Assembly: GCA_963675295.2 (NCBI GenBank)
Contig: CAXXKJ010000002.1
Coordinates: forward strand, 2,272,001 to 2,336,000
DNA: 64,000 nt
Direction: 5' to 3'
Origin: a bacterium
GTDB lineage: Bacteria > Electryoneota > Electryoneia > Electryoneales > Electryoneaceae
The notes under the pieces are model-generated. The model did not search any database. It was not told where the DNA came from and was given only the letters and a program-made list of their open reading frames with translations. The translations under genes were made by a program, and so were the position numbers. This document shows positions 15,408 through 22,105 of this stretch, piece after piece (positions within the stretch are counted from its first letter, which is position 1; each line of letters begins with the position of its first letter).

Positions 15408-15441
15408 AAAAAACGCCGTCCCCGGGAAGGGAACGGCGTTT
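15408..15441 (-). terminator. Intrinsic terminator of the PGA operon
   Basis: aaacgccgt..acggcgttt stem with a 6-U tail on the minus strand, just past the stop at 15476. Confidence 0.7.
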
Positions 15442-15475
15442 GATGTTTGCTTCAGGTCAATCTCTCAGTCCGGCT

Positions 15476-16621
15476 TCACCACAGGCGATAGCTAAGGTTG
15501 AGAGAAGCGCGGAAGGCGTTAAAGTCCTTGCGTTCCTTGAGCCAGTCGACAGGAGAATCGGTGCGGCGGAATTCGTACTCGACGCTGGGCCCACCGTACA
15601 GGTTGCCGATGATCTTCGTTTTGGTTTCCAGTCCGAAACGCCAGTGGTTGTGTTCGCGGCCGGCGTGCACGGGGTCGTTGTCCACGCTGAGCTCGCTGTC
15701 GTAGAAACGGTGACGCAGGCGGGCGGACAGCGACAGATCAATGCGGTTGGGCAGCAGGTCGTACACGTTGAAATCGGCGACCAGTTCGAACCATTCCTCG
15801 CCGTAGGACCCATCACCATACTCGGAATCGGTCTGTCCCGGGTCGTTGGTGGAACCGGCCAAGTGCTGGTTAAATCCGACGTTATCGGACCAGCGGCGCT
15901 TGACGATACCGGTAAGCGTAACCACCTTGTTAACTTTATACCGCAGGTCGAAGCGCAGGCCCCAGCCTTCCGAATCGTATTCGGTGAAATATTTGTTGTA
16001 GTAGATGGTGAAGTACTCGTACCTCGCGCTGAGCCGCATGCCCTTCAGAAAGTCCGGCGAATACTGGATGCCGCCGCCGAGGAGATCGTAGTCGAACTGC
16101 GTGCCGATGATCTCACCGGAATCACGGTCGTAGTAGTCCCGCAGGTAGCGTTCCGGGATGTACAGGTAGCTGAAGAAGATGTCGGTGCGGTTGAGGATAT
16201 CGTGTGTGAAGTACAGGTTGTGGATCGGGCGGTCGTTGTACGAATTGTTCGCGAATGACAGGTAGTTGAACGAGTAGGAAATGCTGCCGTCTCGCCAGCC
16301 CCACAGTTTTGGCAGGCTCAGCCGGGCGTGCAGGCCGAGGCTCTGCACGAAATCATCGTAGGATTCAACGTCGGTCGCCAGCGGCAGTTCGCCGTTGTCG
16401 AAGCGGTCGATGTCTTCTTCCGACAGCTCGAGGATATTGCTGTCATATCCACCCTGATAGTTCAGGGTGAGGCTGGTTTCATCCTGCCAGTCCCAAGATT
16501 TTTCTTTCGCCGAAGCAGTGAAAACGAAAGCGCTGACGACCAGCAGCAGGCTCAGCAGAACCAGCAGGTTAATCCTGGATCGGGGAAGGACGTGCAGGTC
16601 AGCGTTGTTTCGTTTCACCAT
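15476..16621 (-). CDS. Putative outer-membrane beta-barrel protein (last gene of PGA operon)
   Basis: Signal peptide (LLVLLSLLLVVSAFVFTASA), GGYDSNI, many alternating aromatic/polar strands, C-terminal ASLNLSYRLW beta-signal. Confidence 0.75.
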   Translation of the reverse strand: MVKRNNADLHVLPRSRINLLVLLSLLLVVSAFVFTASAKEKSWDWQDETSLTLNYQGGYDSNILELSEEDIDRFDNGELPLATDVESYDDFVQSLGLHARLSLPKLWGWRDGSISYSFNYLSFANNSYNDRPIHNLYFTHDILNRTDIFFSYLYIPERYLRDYYDRDSGEIIGTQFDYDLLGGGIQYSPDFLKGMRLSARYEYFTIYYNKYFTEYDSEGWGLRFDLRYKVNKVVTLTGIVKRRWSDNVGFNQHLAGSTNDPGQTDSEYGDGSYGEEWFELVADFNVYDLLPNRIDLSLSARLRHRFYDSELSVDNDPVHAGREHNHWRFGLETKTKIIGNLYGGPSVEYEFRRTDSPVDWLKERKDFNAFRASLNLSYRLW

Positions 16622-17535
16622 TATTCCGCCTCCATGGCGAGATCGGATTCGGGGATGAAGAAGCGGAGAATGGCTTCGTACTCGTTCTCTGGCAGGTCGA
16701 AGGTGTAGGTGTGCGTGCCTGCCGGGACGTTGATGTAGAGGTCATCACCGCGTGATGGCCGGCGATCCGGATGGTCTGGCAGAATCGCGACATCGGACGC
16801 GGAGGTGTTGATCAGCACGGTGCGCTTGAGCACGTTGTCTTCGTAAATCGCCAGCGGGAACTTGATCTCGCGGCGCATATGGTCTTCCATCATCACACGG
16901 GTGAGGACCTTGATCACGGTTGGGCCGTTAACCGCGACTTCGAGGTTGCCCTTGGGGTCAACGCCGTAGTAAGTGAGCAGGTTTTCGCGGACGCTGACAT
17001 TCACCGGGTTGTTGTAGCGGCTCGGGGTGTAAACGACGAAGTTTTCCTGCTTGATGGTCTCGAAGCGGTCGCGCTGGACGCGGAAGAAGACCGGCATCGG
17101 CGCATCCTTGTCGAGCTTGATGTAGATGCGCTTGGCGGCTTTCGGGGTCTTTTTCTCGATGATGCGTTCGTCACCAGCGATACCGGGCTTACCGTCCAGT
17201 TCGACGTTATCGTCGGCGGTTGCGGCGCGTGCGAAGAGGTGCATGTTGCCTTCGTCGTAGCCGAGACGGAAGGTATAGACGACTTCGTTCTCATCTGCAT
17301 CGCGCATGTCGGCACGGGTAATGACCCGGATGTGATCGTGCTCGGCGATGTCGTAATACATCATCTTACCGGGCTTGAGCCGGTGGTAGACACGATCGTG
17401 GCCGGCGATGGTAAAACTGACGGGGTTCTCGTCTCCATCCGGCGCCAGGGTCACCCATTCAAACGCCTGGGCGGGGATAATCGCCGTGAAAAACAGAAAC
17501 AGCGCAAAAGCTACCAGTACAACGTTCTTCTTCAT
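16621..17535 (-). CDS. Hypothetical secreted/periplasmic protein with two tandem beta-rich repeats
   Basis: Sec signal MKKNVVLVAFALFLFFTAIIPAQA; internal repeat NPVSFTI..YHRL..IRVITRADM vs NPVNVSV..YYGV..IKVLTRVMM. Confidence 0.8.
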   Translation of the reverse strand: MKKNVVLVAFALFLFFTAIIPAQAFEWVTLAPDGDENPVSFTIAGHDRVYHRLKPGKMMYYDIAEHDHIRVITRADMRDADENEVVYTFRLGYDEGNMHLFARAATADDNVELDGKPGIAGDERIIEKKTPKAAKRIYIKLDKDAPMPVFFRVQRDRFETIKQENFVVYTPSRYNNPVNVSVRENLLTYYGVDPKGNLEVAVNGPTVIKVLTRVMMEDHMRREIKFPLAIYEDNVLKRTVLINTSASDVAILPDHPDRRPSRGDDLYINVPAGTHTYTFDLPENEYEAILRFFIPESDLAMEAE

Positions 17536-17552
17536 GGCTTCCTCGTGTACAA

Positions 17553-18686
17553 CTACAGCAGTGTATCCGGGTCTGCGCCCGGCCGGTCGAGCCGTTGGGT
17601 TCGACGGTCGAACAGTAGCACGATGATAAGGGTCGCGAGCACGATGAACAAGGCGGCGACGGTAATTGTCATGTTATAGCGGACTTCGCTGAAGAGCCGT
17701 CCAACACCGGGTTCCGGCAGCGGATTTGGTGACAGCGGCAGCCAGTAGGTGTCAGCAATTTGAGCGATGTTGACCACGTTGAGCACTGGAATACTGCGCA
17801 CATTCATTGCATGGATGACGCCACGACGTGGATAATTCAGCGCCGGGAGCCGGTCGATCAGACCTTCGCCGATGAGTTCGCTGTTGCGCGAGTATCCGAG
17901 GCTGACGACTCCACCGCCAATGTTGACATAGAGCCGGATCGACCGGTCTCCAGCGGCGTCATCGTACCACGCCATTCGCATGGCGACAGCTTCCTCGAGG
18001 TTTTCGTTGAACAGCAGGGGCAGCTTGTTGCGGTCGATGGCGTCATGCAGCAGTTCCCGTCCGCGTGGCGACAGCTGGCGGCCGATATCGTCCCCACCAC
18101 CGATGCTGGCGGCGATCGAACGCTGTTTCAGCATCCCGGCGTGGTGCAGGATGCTCTCCATATCGAGCCATGTGAAGTTCGGATCGTTGGCACCCCACGA
18201 CGATGCGCCGGTCGAGGTGATAACGATCGGTTCGAGGCCCATCGCCTGTGCGGCGGCATACATGGCGAGGTTCATGCCGGGCAGGGAGCCTGTCAGTCCG
18301 ACGGCGACAACATCACCGGAACGCAGGCCTGCCGAATGGAAGTAGTCGACCATGACGGCGGCCATGTTCGGATTCAGCGCGGTCCACTTGGCCTCGAGGT
18401 CACCGGTTTCGGTGGTGACCGGAGAGAATTGCTGTCCGATCAGGGTGGAGGCGTTTGGATCGTTGATATCGTCGAGGAACTCGATCTGCGGGAATTTTCG
18501 TGCGCGCAGGGTGTCCATGGCGGCGTCCATCCACTCGGCCGCGGCGAGTTTTTCCTCGTAGACGGGGGAGAGGCGGACCACGCGTGAGTGGTTGGCCCAG
18601 AGGTACATGACGAGCGAAACGATGGTGAGGACGGCGAGCGTCCAGCTTGACCGCATGGATGGGCGGAATCGGCGTGCCTTAGGCAA
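17553..18686 (-). CDS. pgsW: Poly-gamma-glutamate system protein (PgsW-like)
   Basis: N- and C-terminal TM helices; TTETGDLEAKWTALNPNMAA, GLTGSLPGMN, GASSWGANDP, SIGGGDDIG; follows pgsBC. Confidence 0.85.
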   Translation of the reverse strand: MPKARRFRPSMRSSWTLAVLTIVSLVMYLWANHSRVVRLSPVYEEKLAAAEWMDAAMDTLRARKFPQIEFLDDINDPNASTLIGQQFSPVTTETGDLEAKWTALNPNMAAVMVDYFHSAGLRSGDVVAVGLTGSLPGMNLAMYAAAQAMGLEPIVITSTGASSWGANDPNFTWLDMESILHHAGMLKQRSIAASIGGGDDIGRQLSPRGRELLHDAIDRNKLPLLFNENLEEAVAMRMAWYDDAAGDRSIRLYVNIGGGVVSLGYSRNSELIGEGLIDRLPALNYPRRGVIHAMNVRSIPVLNVVNIAQIADTYWLPLSPNPLPEPGVGRLFSEVRYNMTITVAALFIVLATLIIVLLFDRRTQRLDRPGADPDTLL

Positions 18687-19131
18687 GGAGCGTCCCTCCC
18701 ATGATAATCATCACCAGCAAGCGGACAACGACGGATGCGATGGTGACGGCGGCGATGGTTCGCAAGATGCCCTGGCGTTCAAACCAGTTCGCAATCAGGC
18801 CGGGAATGATGTAGCCGATGGCTTCGAGCCGGATATCGGAGGCGGCATAGACCGGATCCGCGACCAAGTTTCTCAGCGCGGCGCCGAAGATGAAGCCAAA
18901 CAGGATGGCGAGCACCAGGCGGCGTCGTCCGTAGATGAAGACGAACAGCGAGGTCAGTCTGACCGCGCCGAACGTGACGAATGCGACGACGAGTGTTCCG
19001 GCCAGGGTCCAGATGTTATTCAGGTTCAGCGCGATGTAGCCGGGAACGACGATACCGCCGGCGGCGACACCGAAGATCTCAGCGAATACGAGGCTGAACG
19101 CGACACCCAGACCGACCGCGATTTCAACCAT
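18679..19131 (-). CDS. pgsC: Poly-gamma-glutamate biosynthesis membrane protein PgsC/CapC
   Basis: 150-aa hydrophobic protein; AGGIVVPGYIAL, IYGRRR, IGYIIPGLIANW. Confidence 0.95.
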   Translation of the reverse strand: MVEIAVGLGVAFSLVFAEIFGVAAGGIVVPGYIALNLNNIWTLAGTLVVAFVTFGAVRLTSLFVFIYGRRRLVLAILFGFIFGAALRNLVADPVYAASDIRLEAIGYIIPGLIANWFERQGILRTIAAVTIASVVVRLLVMIIMGGTLLA

Positions 19132-20311
19132 TCTTTACTCCTTCACGGCTCCGTAGACGGAACAACTCAGCCACTTCCAACCCCCCGTGTCCAGCGTTTC
19201 CACAACCGAAAACAAATCCTTCCTCGCCGACTTCTTCGAAGAGGATGTCAAAGATTTCCTGTGACTTGCGCAGCCCGATTTTGCGAACTTTTTCCGCCGG
19301 AATGCCGTAGCGGCGCAAATGCGGTGTCAGCATGTCGGTACTTTCGCCCATGGAGACGAGGCGATCAAAGTCGATGCTGGTCCCGATCATCTCGACGAGC
19401 TGCACGCTGCGCGTAAAGCGATCAGCTCGTGTGTTCAGCAGCAGGACGCGTTTCCCAGGATTCGGGTACAGCTCCTGTATGCGTTGCCAGGTCATCAACG
19501 TTGACTCGGGATCGTTGGCGGCCATGGCGTTCAGGAAATGCAGCGTCTTGCCGTCCCGTTGGACGGTGAAGACACGAAGTGCGCCCGGATCGGGGAACGC
19601 CTGCGCCATGCCGCTGAGCGCGGTTTCACGATCGACGCCGAGGTGTTCGCAGACGGACAGCGCCAACGCGACGTTTGACGGATGCTCAATGTAGCTGAAA
19701 CGCCGCATATCTTCGATAGATACGGAAGATTCGGCAGAATAATGGATATCCGACTCGAGAGGCTTGGCACGTCCCTCGAAAACGCCCTTGATTTCAGCGT
19801 TCGGTTCATCCATGAACATCGGGGCTTTTACCGGAATCGTGTTCGCGAGTGAATTGGCGATTTTTTCCAGCGTTGCGCCCATTTCAAGGGTGTGGTCATG
19901 GCGTACATTGGTCATCACGCCGACGGTCGAGTGCACGAAGCGGTGCTCGCACATCCACTGGTAGGCCGGCTGAACCGCCATACATTCAACGACGACGGCT
20001 TTCGGACGGAATCGCGAGAAGAAGCGGAAGACCTTGATCTGTTCGATGATGTTGACGGGATGGAGCCGGATGATCGGAACTTCGAGGCCGTGTTGATTGA
20101 TGATACGGGGTTTGGTTCCGGTAACTTTGGCCATGGTGCGGACTCCACCCGCACGCAATCCCGCGGCGATGAGGCGAGTAACCGAACTCTTCCCACGAGT
20201 CCCGTTAACATGGATTCGGATGGGAATGGAGCGGACCCGATTTCGGTGGGTGACAAATTCGATCACACCGTAGGTGATCATGAATGTCACCAGCAAGCCT
20301 ATGACCAGCAT
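19124..20311 (-). CDS. pgsB: Poly-gamma-glutamate synthase PgsB/CapB (Mur/FolC-like amide ligase)
   Basis: N-terminal TM; IHVNGTRGKSSVTRLIAAGL P-loop, VVECMAVQP, DPGAL, AANDPEST. Confidence 0.95.
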   Translation of the reverse strand: MLVIGLLVTFMITYGVIEFVTHRNRVRSIPIRIHVNGTRGKSSVTRLIAAGLRAGGVRTMAKVTGTKPRIINQHGLEVPIIRLHPVNIIEQIKVFRFFSRFRPKAVVVECMAVQPAYQWMCEHRFVHSTVGVMTNVRHDHTLEMGATLEKIANSLANTIPVKAPMFMDEPNAEIKGVFEGRAKPLESDIHYSAESSVSIEDMRRFSYIEHPSNVALALSVCEHLGVDRETALSGMAQAFPDPGALRVFTVQRDGKTLHFLNAMAANDPESTLMTWQRIQELYPNPGKRVLLLNTRADRFTRSVQLVEMIGTSIDFDRLVSMGESTDMLTPHLRRYGIPAEKVRKIGLRKSQEIFDILFEEVGEEGFVFGCGNAGHGGLEVAELFRLRSREGVKNG

Positions 20312-20476
20312 GACCCCAGTGGCCTCGTGCGAGTTTCCCCGTCTCACAGCAGGGATGCAGAATGACTCTAAAGATCGTGAGCAGAACCCAAAAACGCAAG
20401 GTGTGCCCCGACATTCCCTGCGCCGGATAATAACGAGAATTGAACACGAAAGCAGGAAGAGCGGAGCCGTAATTTG

Positions 20477-21052
20477 ATGATGTTGTTGAAGAAACACCCG
20501 TGGACGCTTGCCTCTGCCTCTCCTCGGAGACTGGCGATCCTGCGTCAGGTGGGGATCGAGCCGGTGGTGCGTCCCGCGAATGTGGAAGAGCTTGAGAACG
20601 GTGGGGAGCCTGAATCGCTGTGTCTCGCCAACTCGCATCGGAAGCTGGATGCGATCAAGCCGGAGGTGGAATCCGGGTTTGTGCTGGCGGCGGACACGAT
20701 GGTGATCCTCGACGGAAACAGCCTTGGGAAACCGGAATCCGAGGATCATGCGTTGGAACTGTTGCGCTCATTACGTGGTCGAGACCACAAAGTACTTACA
20801 TCCTGGGTGTTACATTTACGCGAATCGAACCAGACGCTCGACGGGGTTGAAACGACTCGTGTCTGGATGCGGAACGTGAGCGATGCTGAGTTGCTGGAGT
20901 ACATTGCCACGGGTCACGCGCAGGACAAGGCGGGCGCTTATGGCATTCAGGGAGCGGCAGGCGCCTTTGTTGAGCGGATTGATGGGTGTTACTTTAACGT
21001 CGTCGGCTTGCCGCTTTCCCGTGTGATGGAAGCGGCGGGCAGATTATTATAA
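20477..21052 (+). CDS. maf: Maf-family nucleoside triphosphate pyrophosphatase
   Basis: LASASPRR, ADTMV, GKP, DKAGAYGIQG, NVVGLP. Confidence 0.95.
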   Translation: MMLLKKHPWTLASASPRRLAILRQVGIEPVVRPANVEELENGGEPESLCLANSHRKLDAIKPEVESGFVLAADTMVILDGNSLGKPESEDHALELLRSLRGRDHKVLTSWVLHLRESNQTLDGVETTRVWMRNVSDAELLEYIATGHAQDKAGAYGIQGAAGAFVERIDGCYFNVVGLPLSRVMEAAGRLL

Positions 21053-21094
21053 TGGCATGCACCACGTGGACGACCGGGAGAGAGGACGCCATTC

Positions 21095-22105
21095 ATGGCA
21101 GAACCGAAGTTCCAGGAGTCGAGACAGGAATTCTGCAAGGATCTGATCGCGGCGCGCGAGTACAAGGATATGGACCTGATGAAGGTCTCCGAGCGCACGA
21201 AAATCAGTCCGGACTATCTGTCGAAACTGGAAGCGGGTGACTGGGATTTCCTTCCCGGCAGCTACGTGCGCGCGTTCATGCGGACGTATGCGCAAACGGT
21301 CGGGCTTGATGTTGGCGAAGTGCTGGAGCGTTACGACAGGATTGTCGGCGTCGCACCGACTCCGCAACCGGCGATCAACATGGGCGAAGGTGGTGGTTCG
21401 CGGCGTCCGATCATCCCGGATACCGGGTCTTCGCGTTCACCGAAGTTCATGCTCGCGGATGACAGTTCCTCCGGCAGCAATTTTACTCTGACCAAACCGA
21501 TGTTGTACGGCGGCATCGCGGTTGCCGCAGTGATCGTGATTGTGCTGGTGTACTTCTTCCTGATCAAACCGGGCGGTGAAGATCGTTCGCAGAATGTGGA
21601 AGAGATTCCGTTCGACGAGGTGGTCCGGGAAAGCCAGATGGGGGACGATCCGGACGGCGCGCTCGCGGACAGCCTGGCGGAGGGAACGGTCACAAACGAT
21701 GGTGGCAGCGAGGCAGAGACAGCCGGCAATACACGGAACCAGGCCGCTACGCAACGCGAGGAACCGGTTGAAACGACCCGTGACGAGCCGGAAGAGGCCG
21801 TTGTCACGCCGGTCGGTGCGGGGAGCGGGTTGACGTTGACCGCCGAGGTGTCGCAGCCGTGTTACATGCGGGTGATCACCGATCATGATACGAGCAACGT
21901 GTTCGACACGATACTCAGCAGTGGCAATACTCGTGTGTTCGATGCGGATTCGGTGTTCCGGGTGGTGATCGGCAACACGAACGGGGTGGAGTTGCTGCTT
22001 AACGGGCGGCGGCTGCGCAACATCGGACAGCGGGGCCGGGTGGTCACGTTGACGATTGATCAAAACGGAATCCGTGAGGCCCAGGCGGGGAACCGGGAAT
22101 TGTGA
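21095..22105 (+). CDS. rodZ: RodZ-like protein (HTH + TM + DUF4115)
   Basis: TKISPDYLSKLEAG..LPGSYVRAFMRTYA HTH; single TM; C-terminal IGNTNGVELLLNG. Confidence 0.85.
   Translation: MAEPKFQESRQEFCKDLIAAREYKDMDLMKVSERTKISPDYLSKLEAGDWDFLPGSYVRAFMRTYAQTVGLDVGEVLERYDRIVGVAPTPQPAINMGEGGGSRRPIIPDTGSSRSPKFMLADDSSSGSNFTLTKPMLYGGIAVAAVIVIVLVYFFLIKPGGEDRSQNVEEIPFDEVVRESQMGDDPDGALADSLAEGTVTNDGGSEAETAGNTRNQAATQREEPVETTRDEPEEAVVTPVGAGSGLTLTAEVSQPCYMRVITDHDTSNVFDTILSSGNTRVFDADSVFRVVIGNTNGVELLLNGRRLRNIGQRGRVVTLTIDQNGIREAQAGNREL

Follow-up and report, generated by a model that had tools for sequence, protein, structure and literature searches.

Two genes of unannotated families, one for a secreted protein (P2) and one for a predicted outer-membrane β-barrel, belong to a poly-gamma-glutamate system in a 64,000-nucleotide stretch of bacterial DNA (contig CAXXKJ010000002.1, from a member of the Electryoneota; the whole stretch is referred to here as the window). 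They follow pgsB, pgsC and a gene for a protein of the family TIGR04332 on the minus strand at positions 15408-20311, and their membership of the system is supported because their order is conserved in many lineages, because they are present or absent jointly and because natural fusions occur. A merely coincidental neighbourhood of the P2 and barrel genes was rejected on the linkage counts given below. The most likely function of P2 and the barrel is export of the polymer, or its hand-over across the envelope, and we consider this the probable role. Poly-gamma-glutamate is a capsule, biofilm and industrial polymer which, to our knowledge, has been studied almost only in Bacillus. In the portions of text covered by a full-text literature search we found no description of outer-membrane components for it, and no paper was found on the P2 and barrel genes. 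The features of the operon are as follows.

20312-20473, no strand assigned: presumed promoter region, the 162-bp intergenic stretch between pgsB and a divergent Maf gene
19124-20311, minus strand: pgsB, poly-gamma-glutamate synthase amide ligase, 395 aa (TIGR04012, Mur_ligase_M)
18679-19131, minus strand: pgsC, small polytopic membrane subunit, 150 aa (TIGR04011, Caps_synth_CapC)
17553-18686, minus strand: TIGR04332 'poly-gamma-glutamate system protein', 377 aa, TTG start (TIGR04332)
16621-17535, minus strand: P2, secreted, 304 aa, candidate periplasmic polymer-binding or guide protein (AlphaFold2 fold; fused relatives)
15476-16621, minus strand: outer-membrane β-barrel, 381 aa, candidate exit channel or surface anchor (AlphaFold2 model, fold matches)
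15408-15440, minus strand: intrinsic terminator, hairpin and T run, at the end of the operon (sequence reading, listing of terminator-like sites)

Linkage and natural fusions of P2 and the barrel

Within the same phylum, 41 genomes from 7 families were sampled, and PgsB, the P2 family and the barrel family were each found in 39, always the same ones; the remaining two, both members of one genus, lack all of PgsB, P2 and the barrel. In nearly every genome that has them, the three matches share a contig and a strand and fall within some 5 kb. A wider search with a barrel alignment, limited to one genome per species, gave 80 barrel-seeded loci labelled Calditrichaeota, Candidatus Electryonea, Tariuqbacter, LCP-89, KSB1, Zixibacteria, Bacteroidota (Bacteroidales, Chitinophagales), Ignavibacteria, Chlorobi and Cloacimonadota, together with a metagenome-assembled genome (MAG) labelled 'Gemmatimonadota', a few MAGs labelled Alphaproteobacteria, and others. 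The 62 loci with at least 4.5 kb of sequence upstream of the barrel were taken as the set to be judged, and in 60 of them pgsB, pgsC and the TIGR04332 gene lie directly upstream of the barrel. P2 was also found by tblastn in 57 of those 60, with gene order and strand unchanged throughout, and the other three have an open reading frame of 267-300 aa in the P2 position, with a clear signal peptide in two of the three. For the other 18 loci too little upstream sequence is available for a judgement; what there is shows the expected partial order.

The same association was seen when genomes were sampled by phylum. Among 251 Bacteroidota genomes, TIGR04332 was found in eight and the barrel in four; each of the four barrels is encoded 1-2 kb downstream of TIGR04332, and none of the 243 TIGR04332-negative genomes has a barrel. 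Among 121 Cloacimonadota genomes, 113 have both TIGR04332 and the barrel, seven have neither and one has the barrel alone, on a contig whose low end is only about 1.1 kb away; every TIGR04332-bearing genome (113/113) thus has the barrel. Of 44 metagenome loci in which the sequence continues for 2 kb or more past the TIGR04332 gene, 41 have P2 and the barrel next, in a sample that was seeded with a fused relative and is therefore biased towards the full layout. An earlier note, made from the letters of this DNA, had proposed the five genes as an export system and had named, as grounds for giving the proposal up, homologues of P2 and the barrel being mostly unlinked to the three core genes. Such a pattern was not found: the 60 of 62 loci, the joint presence and absence and the fusions described below all show linkage.

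To extend the barrel family, its profile was run against 1.84 billion representative proteins, which gave 1097 members at E ≤ 0.001 and 817 at E ≤ 1e-10. The 18 longest proteins (457-977 aa) among the best 150 of the 1097 were then searched for domains with purpose-built hidden Markov models and NCBIfam. Eleven of these 18 consist of one to several P2-type domains followed by the barrel; three combine TIGR04332, a P2 domain and the barrel in that order (P0122, P0141 and P0158); one has TIGR04332 followed by the barrel (P0136); one has TPR repeats ahead of the barrel, with weak matches to PgaA, BcsC and PilW-type models (P0154); and two have other N-terminal parts. In P0180 a Lys/Ala-rich, strongly basic low-complexity N-terminal stretch of about 120 residues precedes the barrel. 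A word-index search had returned no longer relatives of P2 (alignment A4), a result superseded by the fused forms found with the barrel profile.

The four TIGR04332 fusions share 39-56% identity with one another, and two of the six pairs align in one piece over the junction. Because the fused architecture is kept in all four, in sequences this diverged, an assembly error is unlikely. In three of the four, the second helix and the P2 part are separated by a third hydrophobic segment that resembles a signal peptide and would return the fused chain to the periplasm and so restore its topology. Fusions of P2 and the barrel occur as single frames in the operon position at five metagenome loci, and four Cloacimonadota genomes have them as open frames 640-654 aa long; one such fusion comes from an Acidobacteriota MAG and one lies on a 12.2-Mb contig. 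Since P2 is fused to the N-terminus of the barrel, an end that the usual topology puts in the periplasm, P2 should reside on the periplasmic side of the outer membrane. As judged from their domain order, the fusions tie P2 and the barrel to the predicted inner-membrane TIGR04332 component.

Synthase genes and operon layout

By what is established for the Bacillus enzymes, PgsB and PgsC would polymerise glutamate at the inner membrane. The TIGRFAM search that the earlier note had called for placed all three core proteins of the operon above the curated cut-offs. PgsB scored 411.9 bits against TIGR04012 (cut-off 222.7; profile positions 2-379 of 380) and 28 bits against the Pfam family Mur_ligase_M (cut-off 24), and has a hydrophobic segment at its N-terminus (residues 2-20). 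PgsC scored 116.8 bits against TIGR04011 (cut-off 96.45) and 113.2 bits against PF14102, Caps_synth_CapC; it has several hydrophobic segments, and its gene overlaps pgsB by 8 bp. The third protein scored 310.3 bits against TIGR04332 (cut-off 100) over the complete profile (positions 1-307 of 307), a family that NCBI named for the poly-gamma-glutamate system, and its gene overlaps pgsC by 8 bp.

Two hydrophobic segments of the TIGR04332 protein (residues 13-31 and 341-359) flank a domain of about 300 residues, which should face the periplasm by the positive-inside rule. The description of this protein in the earlier note, as PgsW with two transmembrane anchors and a periplasmic domain, thus stands as regards the two hydrophobic segments, and the periplasmic location is a prediction. 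The name 'pgsW' could not be traced for this gene in full text, where the best matches listed were all unrelated. A sequence search of solved structures with this protein gave nothing below E 0.1. In a preprint on Cloacimonadota (10.1101/2025.11.11.687785), as far as its text was available, the gene is called 'PgsF', and among the matches listed for that name this preprint alone uses it for this gene.

Relative to the Bacillus systems PgsBCA(E) and CapBCADE, the operon is alike in that equivalogs of PgsB and PgsC, above their cut-offs, lead it and overlap each other. It differs in what follows. No PgsA/CapA (PF09587, PGA_cap) and no gamma-glutamyltransferase/CapD (PF01019) was reported by Pfam for the five operon proteins, and there is no room for a PgsE/CapE peptide, so that the absence of PgsA/CapA, CapE and CapD, as claimed in the earlier note, is borne out. 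In their stead are a TIGR04332 gene, third in order, and two genes with signal peptides, one of which encodes an outer-membrane barrel that would be of no use to a monoderm. The TIGR04332 protein occupies the place of PgsA/CapA in the operon. Elsewhere in the genome, PGA_cap matches occur at three places and the only gamma-glutamyltransferase lies about 460 kb from the operon; the PgsA/CapA- and gamma-glutamyltransferase-type genes thus sit hundreds of kilobases away. The Gram-negative cassette of pgsB, pgsC and TIGR04332 has the first three genes in the same order, and in the available text of the Cloacimonadota preprint the operon is treated as three genes (CapB, CapC and 'PgsF'), the polymer is inferred from the genes, and the words 'outer membrane' and 'export' are not used in the main text. 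The operon described here differs from that three-gene cassette in that two more genes belong to the unit.

The layout in the earlier note, five genes on one strand ending in a single terminator, agreed with our data at every coordinate: the open reading frames overlap by 8, 8 and 1 bp and are separated by a single 17-bp gap, and a 12-pair hairpin followed by six T (15440-15408) lies 35 nt past the stop codon of the barrel gene. The pgsB frame is open as far as 20749, with an ATG at 20311; the start was placed at 20311 because the TIGR04012 alignment begins at residue 3 and because the Maf gene fills 20474-21052. Purine runs resembling Shine-Dalgarno sequences precede four of the five starts, and a sigma-70 scan of 20312-20473 gave no promoter match. 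Since the flanking genes (an MFS transporter, a pseudouridine synthase, Maf and RodZ) are all unrelated housekeeping genes, the unit consists of exactly five genes. We think it probable that these form a translationally coupled operon for a poly-gamma-glutamate system of two-membrane cells. The Maf gene (20474-21052) and a RodZ-like gene (HTH_25 plus RodZ_C), together at 20474-22105, are divergent from the operon, with no functional tie evident.

Predicted folds of the barrel and P2

The barrel matched no Pfam or NCBIfam family above cut-off; its score against the BBP2/OmpL-like porin family (PF07642) was 14.0 bits (E 0.031), below the gathering cut-off of 26.2. Its one N-terminal hydrophobic segment was taken as a signal peptide, and the N-terminal segments of both P2 and the barrel end in AQA or ASA. 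An AlphaFold2 model built on a 23-sequence alignment has 14 strands (pLDDT 85.9, pTM 0.79), in agreement with the earlier note, which had predicted a β-barrel and would have been undone by a different fold. To place this model, 48,161 solved chains were searched and the best 50 matches listed, with Foldseek in agreement. The best matches were CymA (Z 23.0, rmsd 3.7 Å over 282 residues) and OmpG (Z 19.5), followed by FadL (Z 16.0-16.7), accessory barrels of Bacteroidota BAM complexes (Z 16-17) and KdgM (Z 14.1). The exopolysaccharide porins PgaA (Z 14.2), PelB (13.2) and BcsC (13.1) all scored below the 14-strand channels. As modelled, the barrel belongs to the CymA/OmpG class of 14-strand monomeric channels, a likeness of fold without sequence relation: CymA and OmpG share the strand number, are the best structural matches and have only 9-10% sequence identity to the barrel, and they differ from it further in being uptake channels unrelated to polymer synthesis. 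The barrel-family profile matched no chain of solved structure below E 0.1.

Conservation was assessed on an alignment of 35 barrels drawn from many lineages. The alignment is invariant at N62, Y208, N209, F212, T213, E214, Y215, D216, H319, R322 and R352, and the family has the loop motifs YNxYFTEYD and DPxHxGR, which would define it as separate from CymA/OmpG. In the predicted orientation, the outward loops are the most conserved parts, with top-residue frequencies of 0.86 for L4, 0.58 for L6 and 0.51 for L1, compared to 0.37 for the strands and 0.20-0.34 for the periplasmic turns. Ordinary porins have the opposite pattern, with loops that are less conserved. Because the outward loops are the best conserved, opposite to porins, the model points to a constriction, a binding site or a catalytic site formed by these loops. 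The pore lining was estimated from strand alternation only, by which the lumen has 19 basic and 17 acidic residues, a count that decides nothing.

P2 likewise matched no Pfam or NCBIfam family above cut-off and has one N-terminal hydrophobic segment. Its AlphaFold2 model (pLDDT 81.8) consists of tandem jelly-roll sandwiches, at residues of about 27-156 and 166-295, that resemble carbohydrate-binding modules, with CBM51 as the best fold match (Z 9.1). Its first domain aligns with the first carbohydrate-binding domain of BcsB (Z 8.5, rmsd 3.1, 106 residues). Sequence evidence for a place among the carbohydrate-binding modules (CBM51, CBM35 and the like) was looked for: Pfam reported no match for P2, and a P2 profile searched against solved structures had its best match in the PDB at E 0.12, with none below 0.1. 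Of 36 relatives of P2, 30 are net basic (median +11.5), a charge that would suit a binder of polyanions. The complex of the barrel (residues 40-381) and P2 (25-304), predicted with purpose-built alignments, returned a score of 0.13 (mark 0.32), which speaks neither for nor against binding. Close relatives of P2 and the barrel are all unnamed or 'hypothetical', as are the nearest ESM Atlas clusters of both; in one lower-ranked cluster, BBP2_2 is found on 46% of members.

Compared to the exopolysaccharide secretion systems AlgK/AlgE, PgaA, BcsB/BcsC and PelB/PelC, the layout is shared: a single operon encodes the synthase of the inner membrane, a part that binds or acts as a scaffold in the periplasm, and an outer-membrane barrel dedicated to the system. 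The barrel itself has no TPR part, and the TPR repeats N-terminal to the barrel in P0154 recall PgaA and BcsC. Export porins of exopolysaccharides have 16 to 18 strands, compared to 14 here. The polymer here is a polyamide and not a polysaccharide, the fold scores are only Z 13-14 and there is no sequence relation: the NCBIfam and Pfam searches reported no family models of AlgE, PgaA or BcsC for the barrel, and no c-di-GMP module was seen in the operon. Thus, of the analogy that the earlier note had drawn with AlgK/AlgE and BcsC, the layout holds and a sequence kinship of the barrel with AlgE, PgaA or BcsC does not.

In other lineages, further genes accompany the cluster. A large C25 (gingipain-family) peptidase is encoded beside it in 32 of the 80 loci, either just upstream of pgsB or past the barrel (e.g., L024:11930-16219, L046:1279-5052, L064:704-4831 and L079:8597-13219), and the five of these peptidases that were scanned have a propeptide and either a type IX secretion C-terminal domain or a FlgD-Ig-like end. 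A protein of LVIVD repeats (a β-propeller) of about 336 aa is encoded directly after the barrel in 22 of the 80 (e.g., L037:10046-11083 and L079:7460-8479), and the one in L037 looks like a lipoprotein. In L079 the barrel, the LVIVD protein and the C25 peptidase occur together, away from the three core genes. The LVIVD lipoprotein and C25 peptidase genes of other lineages are absent from the operon in the window; its genome has seven C25 genes elsewhere. Since C25 peptidases are linked in other lineages, a PorV/PorQ-type barrel of the type IX secretion system was considered as an identity for the barrel. Pfam reported no such family for it, and among the 50 fold matches listed the only entry from that system is the translocon 6h3i (Z 13.1, rmsd 14.4). 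This candidate was set aside, with the test remaining inconclusive.

A proposed export path and its alternatives

In the proposed mechanism, PgsB and PgsC would polymerise glutamate at the inner membrane, and the TIGR04332 protein would replace PgsA, being anchored in that membrane by two helices with its domain of about 300 residues presumably exposed to the periplasm. This domain and P2 would receive and guide the nascent chain. P2, as a soluble tandem β-sandwich, may bind or guide the chain while docked at the periplasmic face of the barrel, and the 14-strand barrel would pass the linear chain over the outer membrane, with the conserved loops as a putative constriction or holding site. We infer what the product is in this lineage, and likewise the topology of the proteins, their mutual contacts and the polymer's passage through the barrel. 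In its strongest form, the proposal is that TIGR04332, P2 and the barrel make up one continuous trans-envelope machine, in which the nascent polyamide runs from PgsBC straight through the outer membrane, and that synthase-dependent secretion would thereby gain a new class, which draws on two unannotated families. We hold this stronger form tentatively, at slightly less than even odds.

Several observations weigh against export by such a system. The cassette is not universal: four of the eight TIGR04332-positive Bacteroidota have neither P2 nor the barrel. Those four have divergent core genes, with PgsB only about 29% identical, and the two of their loci that were read (L091:3069-9030 and L093:3459-10836) both encode a small secreted protein of about 180 aa and an M14-like peptidase; L093 also has a 660-aa gamma-glutamyltransferase and an open reading frame resembling N-formylglutamate amidohydrolase, both named by sequence reading, and L091 a 430-aa membrane protein. 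Three of the 44 metagenome loci have the core genes alone. In one paper's table, the part of that source at hand, Francisella capA is annotated as a TIGR04332-type 'poly-gamma-glutamate system protein'. In the two exceptions among the 62 judged loci (L020 and L079), PgsB is found elsewhere in the genome and the barrel is far from the core genes, and because the barrels of the Cloacimonadota genomes G334 and G345 are 1.16 Mb and 54 kb from TIGR04332 on one contig, linkage is usual and not obligatory. Kin are not independent, and the joint absences may amount to one or two loss events per phylum. Each TIGR04332 fusion is known from one contig only, at the protein level. The closest solved barrels (CymA, OmpG, FadL and KdgM) are uptake channels and not exporters, and the modelled lumen is not obviously an electropositive pore like that of AlgE. 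The fold matches of P2 (Z ≤ 9.1) are within the range of a common fold, many unrelated β-sandwiches scoring Z 7-9. In this genome both P2 and the barrel are acidic, with net charges of -12 and -19, for which a generally acidic proteome may be one explanation. P2 and the barrel are also acidic in the nearest relative of this genome.

The conserved loops are also open to a different reading. The barrel and P2 could hold poly-gamma-glutamate at the surface as a capsule, as a diderm counterpart of attachment by CapD, with the polymer exiting by another route or by the same barrel. The outward loops, with their invariant N, Y, E, D, H and R, are what a binding or catalytic site would look like, and they fit a constriction equally well; the operon has no gamma-glutamyltransferase or CapD gene, and the C25 peptidase with its type IX tail and the LVIVD lipoprotein of other lineages suggest processing at the surface. 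The fusions speak otherwise, as P2 attached N-terminally to the barrel lies on the periplasmic side by the usual topology, and fusion with the inner-membrane TIGR04332 protein better fits a trans-envelope path; an attachment chemistry, moreover, is not readable from sequence. On balance we regard surface anchoring as unlikely. The fold matches raise the further idea of uptake or recycling, in which the barrel is a porin for gamma-glutamyl oligomers, as CymA is for cyclodextrins and KdgM for oligogalacturonate, and P2 a periplasmic binder that recovers polymer. That the best fold matches are uptake channels (CymA, OmpG, FadL and KdgM) and that P2 has the fold of a binding module are consistent with this. 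It sits poorly with the translational coupling of the P2 and barrel genes to the synthase genes, with the absence from the operon of a hydrolase or an inner-membrane importer, and with a presence that tracks pgsB in the three phyla sampled, and under it a fusion to the synthase-associated TIGR04332 protein makes little sense. We consider uptake very improbable.

A further alternative, which overlaps with export, concerns the product: a different polyamide or a modified glutamate polymer may be made and exported. The replacement of PgsA by an unrelated protein is in keeping with it, and no member of these phyla with a characterised polymer was found in the literature searched, the sole match being the Cloacimonadota preprint (10.1101/2025.11.11.687785), in which, in the text available, the polymer is inferred from genes. 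Against it, PgsB and PgsC are well above the curated equivalog cut-offs and TIGR04332 was named by NCBI for the same system, and we give a different polymer only a small chance.

Under the export reading, the operon follows the logic of synthase-dependent polymer secretion, here with a polyamide as cargo and two unannotated families as the components. P2 and the barrel are the best candidates for the exit of the polymer in two-membrane cells, the proposal is testable, and both proteins are of a size suited to expression. Of the genomes sampled, 39 of 41 in its own phylum and 113 of 121 in Cloacimonadota have the system. If the trans-envelope machine is real, it would be nearly universal in these two phyla and recurrent in many other lineages of the FCB group and in a MAG labelled Acidobacteriota, and the proteins that join TIGR04332, P2 and barrel in a single chain would each amount to the entire envelope-spanning part in one polypeptide. 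A polyamide branch would then be added to synthase-dependent polymer secretion, polyglutamate production could be engineered in Gram-negative hosts, and a polyglutamate coat would be a widespread and overlooked trait of these bacteria.

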